Shown here piece after piece: positions 1 through 39,639 of a stretch of 41,679 nucleotides of DNA. The notes below the pieces were generated by a model that searched no databases, had not been told where the DNA came from, and saw only the letters and a list, made by a program, of their open reading frames with translations. Numbering within the stretch: position 1 is the first letter of the stretch; each line of letters starts with the position of its first letter. The DNA comes from a virus: positions 1 to 41,679 of the IMG/VR virus record IMGVR_UViG_3300045988_173913. One strand, written 5' to 3'. Both the position numbers and the translations under genes were made by a program.

Positions 1-60
1 AAAAGCACGGGCAAGGATTAAATAAAAGCACGGGCAAGGATTAAATAAAAGCACGGGCAA
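1..60. repeat. Tandem 23-bp repeat (aaaagcacgggcaaggattaaat), 2.6 copies, continuous with the array at the right end of the window
   Basis: Direct reading: the unit repeats at 1-23 and 24-46, with a partial copy at 47-60. The first 15 nt equal the last 15 nt of the window. Confidence 0.9.
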
Positions 61-192
61 GCCGTTTTCGGCGGCTTGTCTGTGCTGGAAAGCCGTCGGA
101 TGTTTCTTGCCTTTCTTGGCAATACGAAAATTTAACAGACGCCGAAAACACGGCGGAAGGGTATTCCAGGAATTATACAAAGATTTAAAAGC

Positions 193-618
193 ATGAATAA
201 GATATTTACAATTCTCACACTTGTTTGCGCCTTAAAAGCGCAAGCGGGTATAATTGCGGACACTCTATATATGGAAGCGCGGGGCGAGGGCGAACACGGA
301 CAAAGAGCTGTTGCAACTGTTATTTACAATCGAGCACACGGGAAGGCGGACAAAATTGAAGGCGTCTGTTTGAAGCCTAAACAATTTTCTTGCTGGAATG
401 GAAAGACGCCCAAAAGCGTCAAAATTGCGCCTAAAAACGCTTTTGACAAGCAAGCCTATATAATTGCCTTAAAAATAGAGAAAGAGCTTTTAAACGGCAA
501 TTTTAAGCCTTTGGGAGACTGGACGCACTACTTTAATCCGAAACTTTGCAATCCATCTTGGGCTAAGGGCGCAAAGCAAACACGGGTAGGGAATCATAAC
601 TTTTTAAAAACTAAATAG
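193..618 (+). CDS. SleB/Hydrolase_2-family cell-wall hydrolase with an N-terminal signal peptide (candidate endolysin or secreted lysin)
   Basis: The N-terminus MNKIFTILTLVCALKAQAG is hydrophobic and signal-like. MEARGEG...QRAVATVIYNR...FSCWN matches the conserved SleB-type hydrolase core. Confidence 0.6.
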   Translation: MNKIFTILTLVCALKAQAGIIADTLYMEARGEGEHGQRAVATVIYNRAHGKADKIEGVCLKPKQFSCWNGKTPKSVKIAPKNAFDKQAYIIALKIEKELLNGNFKPLGDWTHYFNPKLCNPSWAKGAKQTRVGNHNFLKTK

Positions 619-632
619 AAAAGGAATATATC

Positions 633-854
633 ATGGGCGCAACAAATGAATTTCCAAGCACGGGAAATATTGTTTTTGATTATTTGTTTATGGGGCTTAT
701 GCTATTCATGCAGGCTTTAATCTGGTGCGTTGATAAGATATTGAAATACCCTATCTTAACCGCGATTTTCCTCATCGTTGTTCTTATCCTTGCGATAATA
801 AATAGGACAATTGAGACAGAAATACGCGGGAATTTGTGGAAATGGAGACGGTAA
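633..854 (+). CDS. Small membrane protein with two predicted TM helices, possible holin partner of the upstream hydrolase
   Basis: 73 aa with two hydrophobic stretches (IVFDYLFMGLMLFMQALIWC; ILTAIFLIVVLILAII) and a charged C-terminus. It lies immediately downstream of the hydrolase. Confidence 0.35.
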   Translation: MGATNEFPSTGNIVFDYLFMGLMLFMQALIWCVDKILKYPILTAIFLIVVLILAIINRTIETEIRGNLWKWRR

Positions 855-855
855 G

Positions 856-1329
856 ATGAAACAAAGTTCGCTTTCTAAAATACGGGAATGCTTGCAAGAA
901 TATTGCAAAGAGAATTGCATTAACGTAAAGTTAAAGATAAAAAAGCACGGGAAAAACACCGAATATATTGCGCTTTATTTTATTGAAGTTTTCGACGCTT
1001 GCCCAGATGTTTTACAGAAAATCCTTAACTTTGTGGCAAGTATTAAGTTGGATAGAACGCCCACAATGCATTGCCCCGATGAGGGGATTTACCTGCACCC
1101 AGAAGATTTTTATGTTGTCCAAAAATCATTCTCAAAAAAGATAAAGAAAAAGGCAACAAACTTCTTAAAAAGAAGGTTTCCAATATTAGTGTCGCCCTAT
1201 CCTGATTGGGAACTATTAGTTTTTCAATTTCTCTGTGGGAATATACAGATTGGAGACGATGAACATTTGCTTAATAAATTTTGGCAAGAAATAGAACAAA
1301 AGAAGGGAAACAGCAGAAATGGAAAATAA
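856..1329 (+). CDS. Hypothetical protein (start moved to the internal ATG at 856 to avoid overlapping the upstream ORF)
   Basis: The track ORF is 811-1329. The ATG at 856 (MKQSS...) directly follows the stop of 633-854. Confidence 0.4.
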   Translation: MKQSSLSKIRECLQEYCKENCINVKLKIKKHGKNTEYIALYFIEVFDACPDVLQKILNFVASIKLDRTPTMHCPDEGIYLHPEDFYVVQKSFSKKIKKKATNFLKRRFPILVSPYPDWELLVFQFLCGNIQIGDDEHLLNKFWQEIEQKKGNSRNGK

Positions 1330-2440
1330 AGAATTATATGCACACGCAAGCGCATTTGCGCGGGTATGGGCTTGTCCTGCCAGCTTGCGCTTAGAAGATG
1401 GATTGCCGAGCGAAGCGAGCGCGGCAAGCGAGCACGGGGAGTACTTGCACGGGATAATGGAGACGGGATTGAATCCGGACATTGTTTCCAATCTTTCCGA
1501 CGAGGAAAAGCAGGGCTTAAAATATGTATATGAAAGACTTGCGGAAATAGAGCACAATAACGGCGGAATTTTGGAAGAAAAAAGGGAGCTTGCTCTTGAA
1601 TACAAAGACAAGCAGGGCAACAAGTTGCTTTCTGGGCGAATTGACAAGGTTTACATTACGGAATACGGAATTGATATAATTGATTATAAATTCGGTTCTC
1701 TGTCGGTTGAAAGCGCAGAAAAGAATTTGCAACTTGCTTGTTATGCGTTTTTGTATGTTGCGAGCAATCCTGAACTTGCGGGCAATACACGGGTAAGGGT
1801 GCATATTATTGCGCCTTTTGCGATAGGCAAGAAATACTCTACTGCCTTCTATACAGTTGAGGAAATTCGGGATATTATCGGTACTCAGATAATTGAAGCA
1901 ATCCACATTGCAAGAAAGACGAATGCGCGTTTTGCGTCTGATATTGGCGAACATTGCCGTTATTGCCGAGCAATAGGCATTTGCCCGAAACAAAAGGAGA
2001 ATGCTGAAATTGTAGTGGCAGAAGGCGAAAATACGCTAAGGCAAGGCGACTTTGCAATAACGCAAGATAATGCGCTGGAAGTCTTTAAGCAGTTGGAAGA
2101 ATGGAATAAACGTAAGTTGCAAGCGGAAAAGTATGTTGAAAAGGTCAAAGAGAATCTTGAAAGGTACGTCAACGATAGCAAGGACGAGCGTTTTGAATGG
2201 AAGCAGGGCGCACGGGTAATACAGTACACTGCGCAAGATGTTTATAACTATTTTAAGCAACTAATTCCGCCAGACAAATTTATAGACTTTTGCAAACCGC
2301 AAGTAATGAATCTTGTTGAGTATGTTTCTGGGCTTTCAAGGCGCAGCAAGGCGAAGGAAAAGAAAGCATTGGACGAAGCCTTGTTAAGTGCGGGGGTGGA
2401 AGTGAAATACAACAAATCAAAGTTAATTTTGAAGAAATAA
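1319..2440 (+). CDS. Cas4/RecB-like PD-(D/E)XK nuclease with a 4Fe-4S cysteine cluster; C-terminal coiled-coil
   Basis: An N-terminal Cys (WACPASL) plus C-x2-C-x5-C (HCRYCRAIGICP) fits the Cas4/AddB-type iron-sulfur arrangement. IDKVYITEYGIDIIDYKFG fits a D...E.K nuclease motif, and QLACYAFLY fits a QxxxY motif. Confidence 0.6.
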   Translation: MENKELYAHASAFARVWACPASLRLEDGLPSEASAASEHGEYLHGIMETGLNPDIVSNLSDEEKQGLKYVYERLAEIEHNNGGILEEKRELALEYKDKQGNKLLSGRIDKVYITEYGIDIIDYKFGSLSVESAEKNLQLACYAFLYVASNPELAGNTRVRVHIIAPFAIGKKYSTAFYTVEEIRDIIGTQIIEAIHIARKTNARFASDIGEHCRYCRAIGICPKQKENAEIVVAEGENTLRQGDFAITQDNALEVFKQLEEWNKRKLQAEKYVEKVKENLERYVNDSKDERFEWKQGARVIQYTAQDVYNYFKQLIPPDKFIDFCKPQVMNLVEYVSGLSRRSKAKEKKALDEALLSAGVEVKYNKSKLILKK

Positions 2441-34519: not shown

Positions 34520-36163
34520 CTATTCTCCATCGTTCTTACTTTCTATCTCCTTTTTCCGCCTTATGTCTCGCTTGCTCGGCACTCTATTCCCCACTGTTAG
34601 AGGCTTAGGGAGAGGTCGCCCCTGATTGTCTTTTTCAGCCGAAAAACTGTTATCTAACTGGTCTGGGCTATCTACAAATTGCGCATCTATGTCTTTTAAT
34701 TGCGGAGGAAGCTCTGGGTCAAGATTTACCCACCCGTCATTCGGGTCATTCGCCATACGTTCCCTTTCCTCCTCTCTTGTAGTCAGATGCGCTCCAACTC
34801 TCATCATTGCCGACTTCGTTTTAAGGTCGCTTATCTGCGCTCTTGTCACCTCATCAGGAGAATCTATCGGATTAAATATTGTTTTAAGCTCTATTTCCTT
34901 CCCAAACTCGGATTTGGCCATAAGCTTATTATGAAAATCTATAATTGGCAAATACTGGGAAAGTCGTATCTTTTCCAGCCTATTATTCACGTCATAACGC
35001 TCAAATTTACCTGCGCCACTATTAGAGCCGCCCTTTATTATCTTTTTAAAAAGGTCTGCGGGAGACATTTGGGTCTTTGCACATAGTCTGTCTTGCAGGC
35101 ACTCTATAACTTCATAAAGCCCTGTTAATGTGGTATCAAACTGCTTTACATTTGAATCCATATCTACTGCAAATATCCCATAATTGTCTTTTGCATCAGC
35201 AGAAATCCTCATCTTCTGATTAAATTCTTCGGGATTTGTAATAGCGGTAAACATATCTCCCTCTATGCAAGCAGTTCTCTTAGTAAGCAACAGTTGCAAA
35301 AGCTCATTTACCGCCTTTTCATAGGCATAAACGTCCTCATATATCATTTGAGTTAGAGGAACTCCGCCATACATATACTTGGGCTTCAATATATCCCCAA
35401 CTGGATAAGGTATATTCTTTATACACCAACTTCTATGGATTCTCATTCTCCCATTTATATCATAATAAGTCGGCTCAAAGAAATGTTGTGTCCACGCGTC
35501 CACTAAATCCTCCCCTTCAAGCTGAGGAACTATCCAATATGGCTCAATAGTAGCCATTCCCGTATAATTCCCCTTCTTTACCAAGCTTATATCAAAGGGA
35601 GTGGTCATATCTACGTCCTCCTTAAAAGTCGGAACCGTCAAAGAATATCCATATTGAAAGGCATTTATCGCACTTTGTATGCAAACGTCCTGAATCTTAT
35701 ACTTAGATTGCGAAATCTCCTCTAAATGGTCTAATTCGCCATCAGAATCCTTCTTGCCCTCCTCTAAATAGCCTAACTTGTATCCCACCATCATCGCTTT
35801 CTGCGCTGGCAACGTACAAGCGTTGCTTATTATCGCATTTTGCATCAAAATTGCGCAGTTTTGCCACCCTATAAATAGGTCGTGAAACTTACTTATTACC
35901 GCATAACTCAAATTTGGGCGGAATTGAGCACTTATCGCGCAACAAGAATCATCTTCTATCGAGTCAAACGCTATTTTTTCGCCTTGCTCGTTGACTCGCA
36001 CCAAACGATTCAACGAAGAACCTATCATCTCTTTACCATATTCAGAGACAATCGAATCCTCATATTGCTTCCGAAGCTTCTGATGGTATTTAATGCTATC
36101 CTCTCGTTGCCTCCTCTCGGCTTCCGTAGGCTCTTTCCTTCTTGTCTTGCGCGTATTACTCAT
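34520..36163 (-). CDS. Portal protein
   Basis: 547 aa, immediately downstream of the terminase large subunit gene. Confidence 0.6.
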   Translation of the reverse strand: MSNTRKTRRKEPTEAERRQREDSIKYHQKLRKQYEDSIVSEYGKEMIGSSLNRLVRVNEQGEKIAFDSIEDDSCCAISAQFRPNLSYAVISKFHDLFIGWQNCAILMQNAIISNACTLPAQKAMMVGYKLGYLEEGKKDSDGELDHLEEISQSKYKIQDVCIQSAINAFQYGYSLTVPTFKEDVDMTTPFDISLVKKGNYTGMATIEPYWIVPQLEGEDLVDAWTQHFFEPTYYDINGRMRIHRSWCIKNIPYPVGDILKPKYMYGGVPLTQMIYEDVYAYEKAVNELLQLLLTKRTACIEGDMFTAITNPEEFNQKMRISADAKDNYGIFAVDMDSNVKQFDTTLTGLYEVIECLQDRLCAKTQMSPADLFKKIIKGGSNSGAGKFERYDVNNRLEKIRLSQYLPIIDFHNKLMAKSEFGKEIELKTIFNPIDSPDEVTRAQISDLKTKSAMMRVGAHLTTREEERERMANDPNDGWVNLDPELPPQLKDIDAQFVDSPDQLDNSFSAEKDNQGRPLPKPLTVGNRVPSKRDIRRKKEIESKNDGE

Positions 36164-36234
36164 AAATTTTTATTGCTAATATGCTTTTTTGACTATTTAC
36201 ACAAATTTGCAAGCTTTTTTTATTCAAATCCTTA

Positions 36235-38121
36235 TTAAAATCCACCTCGACGGTTATACGCAACCTCCGCCGCTTGCGCTATCATATCTGCAATATCGTC
36301 ATGCTTCGCCTTCCCATCTTCTGTAAGCAATAATAACTCCTTCATTACTAATTGACTTACACGATGAGATGCGTTCTCAGGGAAAAGAATATTCCCACTC
36401 TCTATCATCGGCTTCATATCCATTACCCTCATCATCTTATCCCTACCCCTCGGCTTAAATCTCCTTACCGGTATCCCTCCAAGACGCCTTAAATCCTCTA
36501 TAAGCCTCATTCCACTCGCCGCATCTTCTATCCAAACACTCGTTATCCTCTGCCGATTCCCCACTCTACCATTCCACGTCCGATAAAATGTCATAAATTT
36601 CCTAACCAACTCCTCACTCGATATTTTCCCATACAACAAGTCTATCAAATGCAATCGGTTAGTATCCATTGTCCTTCCCCACAACCCTATCGCTGTGTTG
36701 TCGGCTGTCTCACTTGAACGAAAAGCCGTATCAGAAGCCATAAATACCTCACGATACTGCGTCCCAGGCACATAATGGTAAAACTTAAACCACTCCGCTT
36801 TAAACATATTCCCATTGTACAATACTGGCTCTTGTTGCCTCTGAGCCGCAAATACCGCTGGATTCGCAAGTTGCTCCTTCAACAGCATCTCCACTGGAAA
36901 TTGGCTCTCCCAAAAACTCCTCGGCGGATTCACTGTATCATCTAACGCAGGTACTTTTATCACTTCAAAGTCATTCCTATACTTCTCCAATACATACCCC
37001 ACCAAATCATCTACCGCAACCCTCTGCATTATTATGATTATTGGCGTCTTTGTCGGATTATTTAGTCGCTTGCTAAATACTGTCTCATACGATTCCTTTA
37101 CTATTCGCTTCTTGGTTTCCGAATTGAAAAATAATGGATTTAAGGCGTCGTCGATTACTACACAGCCTCCCCATTCGTCTCCGTGAACCCCGCAATTATG
37201 TACAAGAATTTTACTGTGAGTTATAAAAAAGTTATTAACATTCTTTACGGAAAGGCAATAACTTGGTTTATTATGAATATTAACAATGCTTTTTATGCGC
37301 CTATACCCCATTTTGAAGGGTATTCTATCATTACACGAATTAGAGCCGAGGTTAGACGAAAGAAGCTCTCCAACTTGTAGCTCATATCCCCTTTTTAAAC
37401 CTTCTGATGTGTAAAAAATATGGTCGGTAGTGGCTTCAATTACCTCTCCTCCTTCTATCTCTATTCTTAAATATTTATCTTCCTTATTATACACATAATC
37501 AACAACTTCTGATAATACCCTTTCCCCGCTTTCTTTCATTCCCCATACTTTTAATCCACTGGGTTTATCTTCGACTAATTTTCCTATCTTCTCAAATCCA
37601 TTCTCACACTCCACTAATGTATCATAATCAAAACAACCAAAACTCGTAATAGCACTCTCTATTGGCGCACTCCTAAATCCTCCCTTCGCAGCTGTCTCCC
37701 ACAACTCCTTCGCTTGCGTCGTACTACTCAACTTCACCCCAAACATCTTCTGCCATACAGGGTGTCTCATTATCGCCAATATGTCATCGCTCGTCCGATT
37801 ACATACCTGCTCCTGATAACTCGTAAATATAAAATTGCTCTTAGGATTGTGTATGAACCCCCAAGTTATGAAAAATTGCATTATTACGCTCTTCCCACTC
37901 CTCGGACTCATGCTTATTACCAAATTCTTCTTCTTGTTCGTCCCAAATACATACGACTCCAATGCCTCGCATATCTTCTTGTGAAAAGGCAAAAATGTAA
38001 AATCTGTCCCATACAACAACCGAAAAAAGAATATCAAATATAAGCTAAAATCACTCCTCAACGCCGTCGCTGTCGATTGTATGTTGGCAGGGTCTAACAA
38101 TTTCTCAAAGTCTATTTTCAT
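36235..38121 (-). CDS. terL: Terminase large subunit containing a mini-intein
   Basis: Walker A is MSPRSGKSVIM, with an ATPase N-domain and a nuclease C-domain. The intein blocks are CFDYDTLV (A), TTDHIF (B) and LVHN/C (G). Confidence 0.75.
   Translation of the reverse strand: MKIDFEKLLDPANIQSTATALRSDFSLYLIFFFRLLYGTDFTFLPFHKKICEALESYVFGTNKKKNLVISMSPRSGKSVIMQFFITWGFIHNPKSNFIFTSYQEQVCNRTSDDILAIMRHPVWQKMFGVKLSSTTQAKELWETAAKGGFRSAPIESAITSFGCFDYDTLVECENGFEKIGKLVEDKPSGLKVWGMKESGERVLSEVVDYVYNKEDKYLRIEIEGGEVIEATTDHIFYTSEGLKRGYELQVGELLSSNLGSNSCNDRIPFKMGYRRIKSIVNIHNKPSYCLSVKNVNNFFITHSKILVHNCGVHGDEWGGCVVIDDALNPLFFNSETKKRIVKESYETVFSKRLNNPTKTPIIIIMQRVAVDDLVGYVLEKYRNDFEVIKVPALDDTVNPPRSFWESQFPVEMLLKEQLANPAVFAAQRQQEPVLYNGNMFKAEWFKFYHYVPGTQYREVFMASDTAFRSSETADNTAIGLWGRTMDTNRLHLIDLLYGKISSEELVRKFMTFYRTWNGRVGNRQRITSVWIEDAASGMRLIEDLRRLGGIPVRRFKPRGRDKMMRVMDMKPMIESGNILFPENASHRVSQLVMKELLLLTEDGKAKHDDIADMIAQAAEVAYNRRGGF
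37195..37635 (-). mobile_element. Mini-intein (147 aa, residues 163-309 of TerL; no homing-endonuclease domain)
   Basis: Begins with Cys (CFDYDTLV), has the internal TxxH block (EATTDHIF), and ends ...ILVHN followed by a +1 Cys. The coding-region composition differs from the flanking extein. Confidence 0.7.
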
Positions 38122-38157
38122 AAGTCGCTACAAATAACAATATTAACAATAATAGCC

Positions 38158-38871
38158 CTAAATGTCTATTATCTCTCCGCTCTCACGCTTCTCCTTAACC
38201 TTCTCCTGCTCCTCTGCCACCGCACTCGTATCATGATAACCCTCCGCCTCTAAATCCGTACTGCTATCCCTTATCGCCATCAACTCACCCCTTATCTCCT
38301 TTATCTTGTTCATATCTATCGTATGCTTGTGATTCACCTCCATATTCACTGTACTCGTACTCTTACCAAAATTCTCCCTGTCCAACCTCTCCAATATCCA
38401 CTTACTGTCATTCACGTCCTTATTCTTTATCACATTCTCCGCTATGTTCAATAACGCCTGACTCACCAATCGCTCACTCAACGCCTCTAACCTGTCCCCA
38501 AGCTTTACATACTTCTCCTTCAACTTCCTAAACTTACTCGGCATTATGTCACAATAGGCACACAACTTCCCCCCCTTTAACCCATTCTGCGCCCCCTCCT
38601 TCATCCGCTTATACAAATTTACTCCCAAATACACATAATAGCTACTCTTCCGCTTCTCCTCCTCCGCTATACCAGGGTCTATCGCCTTGAATACGTCCTT
38701 GTCCGCCTCCTCCATAGCATCAAATTCTACCGCATTCTTTATCCCCCTTCCATGTATCCTCCACTCATTCTCCCCATACAAATGCTTATACCTCACCGAG
38801 TTCGCCTGCGCCTTCAACAACTTCTCGCTGCTTCCCCCTTCCACAACTCCATTTGAACCTTCTTCTAACAT
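38158..38871 (-). CDS. Putative terminase small subunit
   Basis: 237 aa, directly upstream of terL. GGAGG RBS. The C-terminal ...WILERLDRENFG resembles TerS families. The assignment is tentative. Confidence 0.4.
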   Translation of the reverse strand: MLEEGSNGVVEGGSSEKLLKAQANSVRYKHLYGENEWRIHGRGIKNAVEFDAMEEADKDVFKAIDPGIAEEEKRKSSYYVYLGVNLYKRMKEGAQNGLKGGKLCAYCDIMPSKFRKLKEKYVKLGDRLEALSERLVSQALLNIAENVIKNKDVNDSKWILERLDRENFGKSTSTVNMEVNHKHTIDMNKIKEIRGELMAIRDSSTDLEAEGYHDTSAVAEEQEKVKEKRESGEIIDI

Positions 38872-38874
38872 ACC

Positions 38875-39275
38875 TAGCCTCCATTACTCATTGTTATCTC
38901 TAATCTTACTATTACCCCCCCCCTCTCTCACATACGCGTACCATTGTCAAGCATTTTATCTACTCCCACATACCCCTTTTCTTATATTTTTTTCCAAAAC
39001 GCCTCCCCCTCCCTCACAACAATATCGCGTCCCCCATACCACCACACACCTCCACCACCCCCCTCTCCCTATCCCCATATCCCTTGCTACCACTACCAGC
39101 AACCCTACCTCTACTTCTTTCCCTTAACATACCCTACCTTTCGTTATATCCCTTATCTTATATCCCTTACCTTAGGTTCTATCTTATCTCTCTCTCTCTT
39201 ACATCGTACCTCAACACCCCCACCCCCTAAACCCCCCTCCCCCTCGCTTGCGTTTTTGCTATGGGGGGGGTATTT
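38875..39275. promoter_or_regulatory. Non-coding polypyrimidine (C/T on + strand) tract with C9 and G8 homopolymers
   Basis: About 400 bp with almost no G on the + strand. ccccccccc lies at about 38915 and gggggggg at about 39263. The ORFs called here by the track are proline-rich low-complexity artefacts. Confidence 0.5.
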
Positions 39276-39639
39276 TAGGGCAAAAAAGCTAAAATCCTCT
39301 AAAACGCGCAAAATTACACTTAAAATCGATTTTGTTTAAAAAGGTATATGATCATATAGGCAACACAATAAAAATCGTTTTTAGGTGGCTTTTTGTTGCA
39401 AATAGAGGCACTCACAATTTGGGGGGCAATCGTTTTTTTGGGGGAAAGCCGACAAATACACAACTTTTTGCCGATTGCAGTTTAAGGCCGCCTTTTATCG
39501 TTTGTAAGTGCTTCATTATCAATGAGTTGCGATCGGCAAATGGGACAAAATTAGACATAATGAACCTTATGCGACAAAACATAAGTTGTTGATTATCAAC
39601 TAACTATTATTTATTGGGTTTATTTTGTCATTTTTTAAG

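Follow-up and report, generated by a model that had tools for sequence, protein, structure and literature searches.

A mini-intein in a phage terminase large subunit as the probable deletion relic of inteins with an antisense HNH homing endonuclease

An intein without an endonuclease interrupts the gene of the terminase large subunit (TerL) in the virus record IMGVR_UViG_3300045988_173913 of IMG/VR, a stretch of 41,679 nucleotides (nt) the whole of which is hereafter called the window. The precursor gene terL, composed of N-extein, intein and C-extein, is an open reading frame (ORF) of 628 amino acids (aa) on the minus strand (36235..38121). The intein occupies TerL residues 163-309 (37195..37635, minus strand), as indicated by Pfam, AlphaFold, Foldseek and the gap left in empty alleles. 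The question raised by this locus is how such a small intein originated, that is, whether it has always been small or has lost something. Comparison with related phages makes it very probable that the element is a class-1 mini-intein left by deletion from a larger intein, which carried the gene of an HNH homing endonuclease on its antisense strand. With less assurance, we incline to the view that the parents form a previously undescribed family of terminase inteins with an I-HmuI-like HNH gene placed antisense and in register, a family that is widespread in uncultured phages, occupies three sites, presents all stages of the homing cycle in one species and would be the first antisense HNH case.

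The nature of the element was analyzed first from its residues and its fold. An earlier note, made from the sequence alone, had placed an intein at 37195-37635; these coordinates follow exactly from the 628-aa ORF, and the motifs it had picked out, namely the CFDYDTLV start, the EATTDHIF block and the VHN end followed by Cys, are all read in the sequence, in which the intein ends in ILVHN and CGVHGDEW comes next. In alignment A2, which comprises close and 46-50% identical intein-bearing relatives, the putative nucleophile of the N-S acyl shift, Cys1 (TerL residue 163; codon at 37633..37635, minus strand), is invariant. The same holds for T69, D71 and H72 of block B (T69-T-D-H72, the TxxH motif; 37420..37431, minus strand) and for His146-Asn147 of block G (37195..37200, minus strand), the terminal Asn of which is expected to cyclise. 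The first residue of the C-extein, Cys+1 (Cys310, codon TGC at 37192..37194, minus strand), is Cys in all intein-bearing alleles, and the catalytic residues as a set are invariant or nearly so. In more distant relatives block G reads SN or KN instead of HN, with the terminal Asn kept in every case.

The isolated segment scored 41.6 bits against the Pfam family Intein_splicing (PF14890; cut-off 35.8), and no endonuclease family was found by Pfam within its 147 aa in either frame, as is the case for mini-inteins (~130-200 aa, no endonuclease). The AlphaFold model of the 147 residues is a single all-beta Hint domain with a mean predicted local distance difference test score (pLDDT) of 80. The best Foldseek matches in the PDB are solved inteins and mini-inteins (PhoCDC21-1, the Mtu RecA splicing domain, Ssp DnaB mini, Ssp and Npu DnaE, and gp41-1; E ~1e-8, TM ~0.75-0.8). 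The earlier description of a complete Hint domain with no endonuclease insert is borne out by this profile match and this predicted fold. Since Cys1 (Cys or Ser in this class), TxxH, His-Asn, the +1 nucleophile, the profile and the fold, which define a class-1 intein, are all present, the element appears to be an ordinary and functional-looking mini-intein.

A longer form of the same intein is found in close relatives. The 814-aa TerL P0025 (97% identity, 39 member sequences) is encoded by a gene, L001, that is collinear with the window terL at 95-100% identity per 100-nt block, with the exception of 558 extra nt (186 codons) between ...SNSCND and RIPFK.... In the DNA alignment these 558 nt are missing from the window at 37324..37325, where the plus strand reads GTATT|CTATC. 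In the sense frame this deletion scar lies inside the codon of intein residue Arg104 (...SNSCND|RIPFK...), and residues 100-103 beside it form the only internal stretch of the model with a pLDDT below 50. The sense translation of the L001 insert has many F, I, S, N, K and R residues, and a Pfam search assigned it to no family.

The opposite strand of the L001 insert contains an ORF (1566-2228 of the locus, minus strand), which is 221 aa long if it starts at the Met of MNINN and 251 aa long if it starts at an upstream GTG. This antisense ORF scored 37.1 bits against Pfam HNH_3 (cut-off 24.8); matches to NUMOD4 (19.2 vs 23.4 bits) and to a helix-turn-helix (HTH) family (17.9 vs 25 bits) were below the cut-offs. 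It was also matched to the structure of I-HmuI (PDB 1U3E) with E = 5e-11 and a conserved HNH motif. I-HmuI, the HNH homing endonuclease of a group I intron of Bacillus phage SPO1, nicks DNA at a specific site and so promotes the homing of its intron. The alignment with I-HmuI covers the NUMOD4 and HNH regions and the shared His/Asn catalytic motif, and in the endonuclease alignment A4 residues R78, H79, N87, N91 and N100 are invariant. I-HmuI is, however, intron-encoded on the sense strand, whereas its homologue in the parent element lies antisense within a protein-splicing element. The antisense ORF shares the codon register of terL, each antisense codon being the reverse complement of one sense codon. 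At its beginning ~17 codons are shared with the intein sequence that lies just upstream of block F, and at its end ~18 codons are shared with the last part of the N-terminal splicing region.

Both ends of this ORF are still present in the window. A 35-codon remnant followed by a stop codon lies at 37273..37380 on the plus strand. It consists of 17 N-terminal codons (MNINNAFYAPIPHFEGY, the start of NUMOD4), a junction codon for S and 17 C-terminal codons (IITRIRAEVRRKKLSNL), which align with both ends of the intact 221-aa L001 ORF and of its homologues; neither the HTH nor the catalytic core of the HNH enzyme is left. A Pfam search with this stub gave no match of its own, and the features of an HNH_3 or I-HmuI-like enzyme (HNH with His and Asn, NUMOD4) are found in the parent element only, the window lacking the catalytic part. 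Some sister alleles do not have even the start codon of the stub (NIHNKP to NIPNKP in the sense frame), and the stub is therefore not under selection. Since the window retains this stub and no intact antisense ORF, its intein is a derivative of the antisense-endonuclease inteins and not a current member of them.

Was the endonuclease lost, or was it gained by L001? Among TerLs 96-99% identical to that of the window, seven classes of linker between ...SSNLGS and ...PFKMGYRR were distinguished at the protein level, and they keep nested amounts of the long-form sequence. At the DNA level five mini alleles have deletions of 558, 552, 570, 540 and 507 nt, all multiples of 3, with left ends at nt 797, 780, 780, 815 and 825 and right ends at nt 1355, 1332, 1350, 1355 and 1332 of the full gene, respectively. 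Microhomology at the junctions is merely 0-3 nt, so that no deletion mechanism can be deduced from it. Long and mini forms are both present in a second clade as well (P0039-P0044, 47-48% identity).

It might be argued that the window has a primary mini-intein that never had an endonuclease, that the HNH gene of L001 is a later insertion, and that the unusual composition of the intein merely reflects foreign origin. The window copy indeed has no endonuclease domain, and invasion by free-standing endonucleases is the accepted origin of composite inteins (bioRxiv 10.1101/2025.01.02.630785). A single insertion, however, gives one junction, and at least five deletion end-points are found in alleles 96-99% identical. 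The long form is therefore ancestral, and the endonuclease was lost repeatedly. Furthermore, a homologous endonuclease occupies the same site in TerLs only 33-48% identical and so predates this phage species, and both termini of the endonuclease ORF are retained in the window. We consequently regard a primary mini-intein as very improbable.

The deletion relic is also in accord with the state of the population: within a single phage species, at 95-99% TerL identity, alleles without the intein are found side by side with complete and with decayed ones, as a homing-cycle model predicts. The separate acquisition that the earlier note had suspected is supported by this coexistence.

As a separate observation on the allele series (L001, L025-L028), certain end-points recur, the left end 780 twice and the right ends 1332 and 1355 twice each, in varied combinations. 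This suggests break hot spots or recombination between deletion alleles.

If the parent element is as described, the antisense strand should be the coding one in the overlap. Codons of nine terL genes were aligned, and substitutions were counted by sense codon position in the exteins, in codons belonging only to the Hint domain and in the HNH overlap. For the pair L005-L008 the counts at positions 1/2/3 were 80/34/194 in the exteins and 14/2/32 in the Hint-only codons; in the overlap they were 31/8/7 (chi-square p = 3e-9 vs exteins). The overlap differed from the exteins in four more divergent pairs as well (p from 3e-4 to 6e-6), and the Hint-only codons never did. In the overlap, variation is thus concentrated at the first sense position, equivalent to the third antisense position, and the antisense frame is therefore the selected one. 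In the overlap every divergent pair shows fewer aa differences in the antisense than in the sense translation (e.g. 95 vs 145), and the exteins show the opposite pattern.

The sense strand has left its own mark on the antisense ORFs. In this register a sense stop would arise from three antisense codons only, TTA, CTA and TCA. None of the three occurs in any of the ten endonuclease ORFs examined, whereas TTA and CTA make up 24-73% of the Leu codons in the exteins of the same genes. Given extein codon usage, the indicative chance of such complete avoidance is 10^-1.7 to 10^-8.5 per ORF (seven ORFs). These patterns indicate that one strand is selected for its protein and that the other is apparently selected only to stay translatable.

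There is another way to read the long relatives, namely that their insert encodes a genuine new intein domain on the sense strand, the antisense HNH frame being due to chance or without function; the window would in that case have lost a domain encoded in the sense frame. The sense frame is, in fact, open for ~190 codons at every locus. The reversed codon-position pattern and the better conservation of the antisense translation contradict this reading. So do the significant HNH_3 and I-HmuI homology of the antisense ORF, with conserved catalytic residues, and the want of a family or a confident fold for the sense insert. We consider it highly unlikely.

It is worth noting that several points weigh against an antisense endonuclease gene and its loss from a splicing intein. 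When the surroundings of the antisense ORF in L001 and in the window were scanned with the sigma-70 consensus, nothing resembling a promoter came up on the proper strand ahead of the HNH start, although the promoter type of the host may differ, and in L001 sigma-70 site counts were no higher than the shuffled expectation; the scan for promoters and terminators is uninformative about expression. There is no clear Shine-Dalgarno sequence within 15 nt of the HNH ATG. This absence is not diagnostic because the TerL start and other genes here also have no obvious one. Block F of the intein has Cys in place of the Asp found in many inteins. In the AlphaFold model of P0025 the sense read-through (residues 262-455) has a pLDDT of 21-40 and the flanking Hint and TerL parts 74-97, which is supporting evidence only because AlphaFold worked from shallow alignments of 14 and 25 rows. 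The sequences compared are relatives and phylogenetically non-independent, so that the pooled substitution and avoidance probabilities make the significance look greater than it is and are indicative rather than exact. Finally, splicing and endonuclease expression are predictions from sequence comparison.

The composition of the intein coding region can be understood on the same basis. The earlier note had described terL as strikingly G-poor on the plus strand except for about 37195-37400. The break is real and local to terL, but its nature is different. On the plus strand the exteins have 13.3% G, 29.9% C, a GC content of 0.43 and a GC skew of about -0.38. The zone 37195..37400 has 15.5% G, which does not differ significantly from the exteins (Fisher p = 0.39), and a G enrichment was accordingly rejected; what marks the zone is a loss of C (17.0%, p = 7e-5 vs exteins), a lower GC content (0.325) and a skew of -0.04. 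The N-terminal half of the intein (37401-37635), with 7.2% G, is poorer in G than the exteins (p = 0.008). All of the least-skewed 206-nt windows in terL start at 37175-37240. The skew of 37195-37400 is at the 76th percentile of the minus-strand gene block 15436-39200, that is, unremarkable there, and the anomaly is therefore local to terL.

Along L001 the exteins and the N-terminal Hint part have sense-strand skews between +0.25 and +0.76, and the antisense ORF together with ~90 nt of its 5' flank has values from -0.14 to +0.21. Genes of this genome have a purine-rich coding strand. Because coding on the opposite strand cancels this purine bias, the zone in the window is taken as what remains of an antisense-coding footprint; the anomaly would mainly be the footprint of the antisense gene and its 5' flank, not generic foreign DNA.

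Does the shortened intein still splice? In the comparison of the window with L001, 12 of 12 substitutions in the Hint-only codons are at third positions (0/0/12), with one aa change, and the exteins have 5/3/31 substitutions by codon position. Purifying selection therefore acts on the splicing domain just as it does on the essential host protein. From the essentiality of TerL, this purifying selection and the abundance of the alleles, we infer that the exteins are joined by protein splicing. It could be supposed instead that the mini-intein is dead for splicing and that terL is a pseudogene of a defective phage or a product of mis-assembly. The identical protein, P0001 (100% identical TerL), was found on 5 metagenome contigs of up to 40.3 kb, and a large protein collection contains >30 near-identical variants (624-645 aa) on contigs of ~40-44 kb from many samples. 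Together with the selection on the Hint codons, the intact catalytic residues and the deletions that are all in frame, these facts leave very little probability to a dead intein.

The insertion is precise to the nucleotide. The empty allele L002, which encodes the 481-aa TerL P0036 (95-97% identity, 51 member sequences), is exactly 441 nt, or 147 aa, shorter than the window terL in both DNA and protein alignments. It had been predicted that excision would restore a contiguous ATPase sequence, and the 481 aa left after removal of the intein equal the length of P0036. Intein-free TerLs at 95-97%, 68% and 35-48% identity align straight over the site (...TSFG|AGIHGDEWGGCVVIDD), and this gap of precisely 147 residues effectively excludes a conserved native domain. 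The insertion point, G|CG, is in the ATPase domain nine residues ahead of the Walker B strand.

The empty junction in L002/P0036, near nt 1128 of L002, reads TSFG|AGIHGDEW. Its +1 codon is GCC (Ala), vs TGC (Cys) in the occupied alleles, and several more differences from the occupied alleles fall in the 16 nt directly after the site. Empty alleles have Ala at +1, with Val once and Cys once, and occupied alleles always have Cys. The empty allele with Cys at +1 is that of P0045, a 500-aa intein-free TerL of 48% identity (TGFG|CGRSG); an intein that was lost precisely may have left this Cys behind, or the site may have been pre-adapted. That the segment is a native, non-splicing domain of TerL, or a Hint domain of the bacterial intein-like (BIL) or Hedgehog type that is retained or only cleaves, has in its favor weak, below-cut-off Pfam matches to Hint (PF01079) and PT-HINT, and is the least credible reading given that homologues align over the gap, that the segment breaks the conserved ATPase core just ahead of Walker B, that Cys1, HN and a Cys+1 co-varying with the intein are all present, and that Intein_splicing is the best family and above its cut-off.

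On these grounds the following course of events can be proposed for the deletion relic and its parent. TerL would be translated as the 628-aa precursor, the Hint domain would fold, and an N-S acyl shift at Cys1 would yield a thioester. The N-extein would then be moved to Cys+1 by trans-thioesterification, and cyclisation of Asn147, with the assistance of His146, would release the intein. An S-N shift would finally give the 481-aa TerL with the sequence ...AITSFG-CGVHGDEW..., for which the junction tryptic peptide is predicted to be SAPIESAITSFGCGVHGDEWGGCVVIDDALNPLFFNSETK.

In the parent element, the loop between the splicing blocks would hold ~560 more nt, as is seen in 97% identical phages and in many distant TerL lineages. 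The antisense product would be a free-standing, I-HmuI-like NUMOD4-HNH-HTH homing endonuclease of ~215-225 aa, the ends of which overlap the intein coding sequence. The sense strand would only be kept free of stops, and its translation would be a linker with no structure of its own, removed together with the intein. In co-infection the endonuclease would nick or cut an intein-less terL, and repair would copy in the whole element (homing). Once no longer useful, the endonuclease would be lost; because TerL is essential, only in-frame deletions that spare the Hint domain survive. The splicing steps follow the established chemistry of inteins; the activity and target of the endonuclease and homing are deduced from homology to I-HmuI.

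The antisense arrangement is not confined to L001. With the endonuclease as the query, seven IMG/VR loci (L003-L009) were found, each with an antisense ORF of 46-56% identity inside the gene of an 800-845-aa TerL. The same architecture is seen in L015, L017/L020 and L021-L023, and all these TerLs are 33-48% identical to that of the window; the loci of P0044 and P0051 also have the antisense-nested arrangement. An intact antisense ORF within the intein is present in L001, L003-L009, L015, L017, L018 and L021-L022. Endonuclease relatives in L010-L013 and L024 are free-standing and not nested in a long antisense ORF, and the match in L014 lies inside a long sense ORF. A genome scan added contigs binned with metagenome-assembled genomes (MAGs) of Acutalibacteraceae, Clostridia, Bacillota and Bacteroidales.

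Among GenBank phages the best match is the cultured Escherichia phage BUCT618 (L018; OM735461.1). Its antisense HNH ORF of 223 aa (1001-1672, plus strand) lies within the terminase coding sequence (20-2389, minus strand; 789 aa), and the intein site is GFGG|C...SN|CIIIDD. The GenBank record has the terminase only, with neither the intein nor the antisense ORF annotated. BUCT618, L021 and L022 keep this codon register too, and none of them has any of the three stop-creating codons.

Three insertion sites were distinguished within ~15 residues around Walker B: TGFG|CG, which is the site of the intein in the window, GFGG|CIIIDD in BUCT618 and GFLL|CDD in L021. Between L005 and L008, 7% of the nucleotides are different in the overlap and 21% in the exteins, as expected if the element moves between phages.

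The HNH overlap in the TerL gene of phage rV5 was set aside as a different architecture, the HNH there being on the sense strand of an annotated split (intron-type) gene. In L017/L020 (JAZQTG010000023.1, an Acutalibacteraceae MAG) the HNH motif is degenerate, TRHINSIKTDN...YGTAQDNTND vs the conserved VRHLDGN...YGTQSDNEQD; this may be an early decay of the endonuclease with the ORF still open. A second intein was noticed in the P-loop of P0044 and P0048 (47-48% identity; PRWGK|L...HN|S; L015 2001-4928). It has an in-frame LAGLIDADG_3 domain in P0048 and a shorter form in P0044, so that the terL of P0044 is interrupted by two inteins, of which one carries an antisense HNH.

How do these elements compare with known ones? 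TerL is the commonest intein host in phages, and the TerL inteins of (actino)bacteriophages are located in the ATPase domain, at or near the P-loop, Walker B and the C-motif (Kelley et al. 2016, mBio, PMC5050341). For several mycobacteriophage TerL inteins splicing and homing have been demonstrated, and it has been argued that splicing must precede formation of the ATPase (PMC5050341). The intein in the window resembles these in its site near a nucleotide-binding motif of the ATPase domain. Those inteins, however, have in-frame endonucleases, mostly LAGLIDADG, in actinophage TerL families, whereas the intein in the window has none in frame and is in a Terminase_6C-type TerL that is distant kin of the Klebsiella JD001-like phages.

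Antisense endonucleases in inteins have precedents. Antisense LAGLIDADG endonucleases in inteins were reported by Gorbalenya 1998 and Gogarten et al. 2002, as cited in bioRxiv 10.1101/2025.01.02.630785. The published antisense enzymes are of the LAGLIDADG and VSR-like (EDxHD) types, and HNH is listed in frame only (bioRxiv 10.1101/2025.01.02.630785). In the same work, Gosselin, Arsenault and Gogarten predicted that mini-inteins exist as relics of antisense-endonuclease inteins and called for a survey.

The elements described here share with the published ones an ORF between the splicing blocks on the opposite strand of an open sense frame, the proposed origin by invasion of a free-standing endonuclease, and the predicted mini-intein as the product of decay. 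Unlike them, the parent enzyme is of the I-HmuI-like NUMOD4/HNH_3/HTH type and is found outside actinophages at three nearby TerL sites, and the window has a relic. No report of an antisense HNH inside an intein was found in the full-text literature, the coverage of which is incomplete, so that one may exist. The TerL of Campylobacter phage IBB_35 has been reported with "an intein and an intron enclosing an HNH", which may or may not represent the same architecture.

With the mini-inteins Mtu RecA delta-I, Ssp DnaB mini, Npu DnaE and gp41-1, the intein in the window shares the endonuclease-free Hint fold of ~130-160 aa. Like the engineered RecA and DnaB mini-inteins, it would have arisen by deletion of the endonuclease insert at the canonical loop. 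Unlike the engineered ones, the deletion would be a natural one, of an antisense gene and not of an in-frame domain, and sequence identity is 17-26%. We therefore rate the parent family as a new form of a known, rare antisense architecture and the copy in the window as ordinary in itself; the added interest of this copy is in its history and its relatives.

For annotation, these results mean that this terL should be read as the gene of a spliced 481-aa protein, and that the ~800-aa terminases of its relatives hide an unannotated gene on the opposite strand. For intein biology, the natural series of empty, composite and independently deleted in-frame alleles documents the homing cycle and the origin of mini-inteins; if the interpretation is correct, it would be the clearest natural record of the origin of mini-inteins from non-canonical inteins. 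The locus fits the "splicing first" model, in which free-standing endonucleases invade splicing elements, and would extend the antisense architecture to HNH enzymes. It is also a case of overlapping genes, with ~650 nt of same-register antisense overlap, selection at the protein level on one strand and a "no stop codon" constraint on the other. BUCT618 would then be a tractable system for the expression of a gene against a late operon whose complement is translated.

The host protein is a large terminase of the Terminase_6 type, with an N-terminal ASCE ATPase having Walker A and B motifs and a C-terminal RNaseH-like nuclease. Outside the intein, TerL matched Terminase_6C with 37.5-38.1 bits (cut-off 22.6), and Walker A (SPRSGKS) and Walker B (VVIDD) are directly visible in its sequence. 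The N-extein (residues 1-162; 37636..38121, minus strand) contains Walker A, ends in ...AITSFG and aligns without gaps to the intein-free P0036 and P0038. The C-extein, including the stop codon (36235..37194, minus strand), has Walker B downstream of the junction in CGVHGDEWGGCVVIDDA, followed by the RNaseH-like nuclease domain. In tblastn searches TerL proved distantly related (33% identity) to large terminases annotated in phages that resemble Klebsiella phage JD001, the matches consisting of two pieces between which the intein segment is skipped. On one side terL is flanked by a terS-like ORF and on the other by a portal gene (Phage_portal_3 in homologous loci). The phages with a TerL of this type are uncultured and probably of gut origin; the MAG labels of relatives (Acutalibacteraceae, Clostridia, Bacillota, Bacteroidales) are suggestive only as hints to the host.

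Two further features of composition were observed around terL. The terS-terL region (36000-39250) has a skew of -0.34 to -0.60 per kb, vs -0.03 to -0.23 in other minus-strand structural genes, and its coding strand has unusually many purines and little C. There are ~400 nt of apparently non-coding sequence (38872-39290) upstream of the terS-like ORF (38158..38871, minus strand), at the boundary of the minus-strand late block and the plus-strand genes. Their minus strand is nearly free of C, with G-runs and GA repeats (GGGGAGGGGGG, GGGGGTGGGGG, GAGAGAGAGAGA), and the GC skew on the plus strand is -0.75 to -0.86. This segment may serve in packaging, as an origin or as a promoter region, or may be an element prone to form G-quadruplexes.

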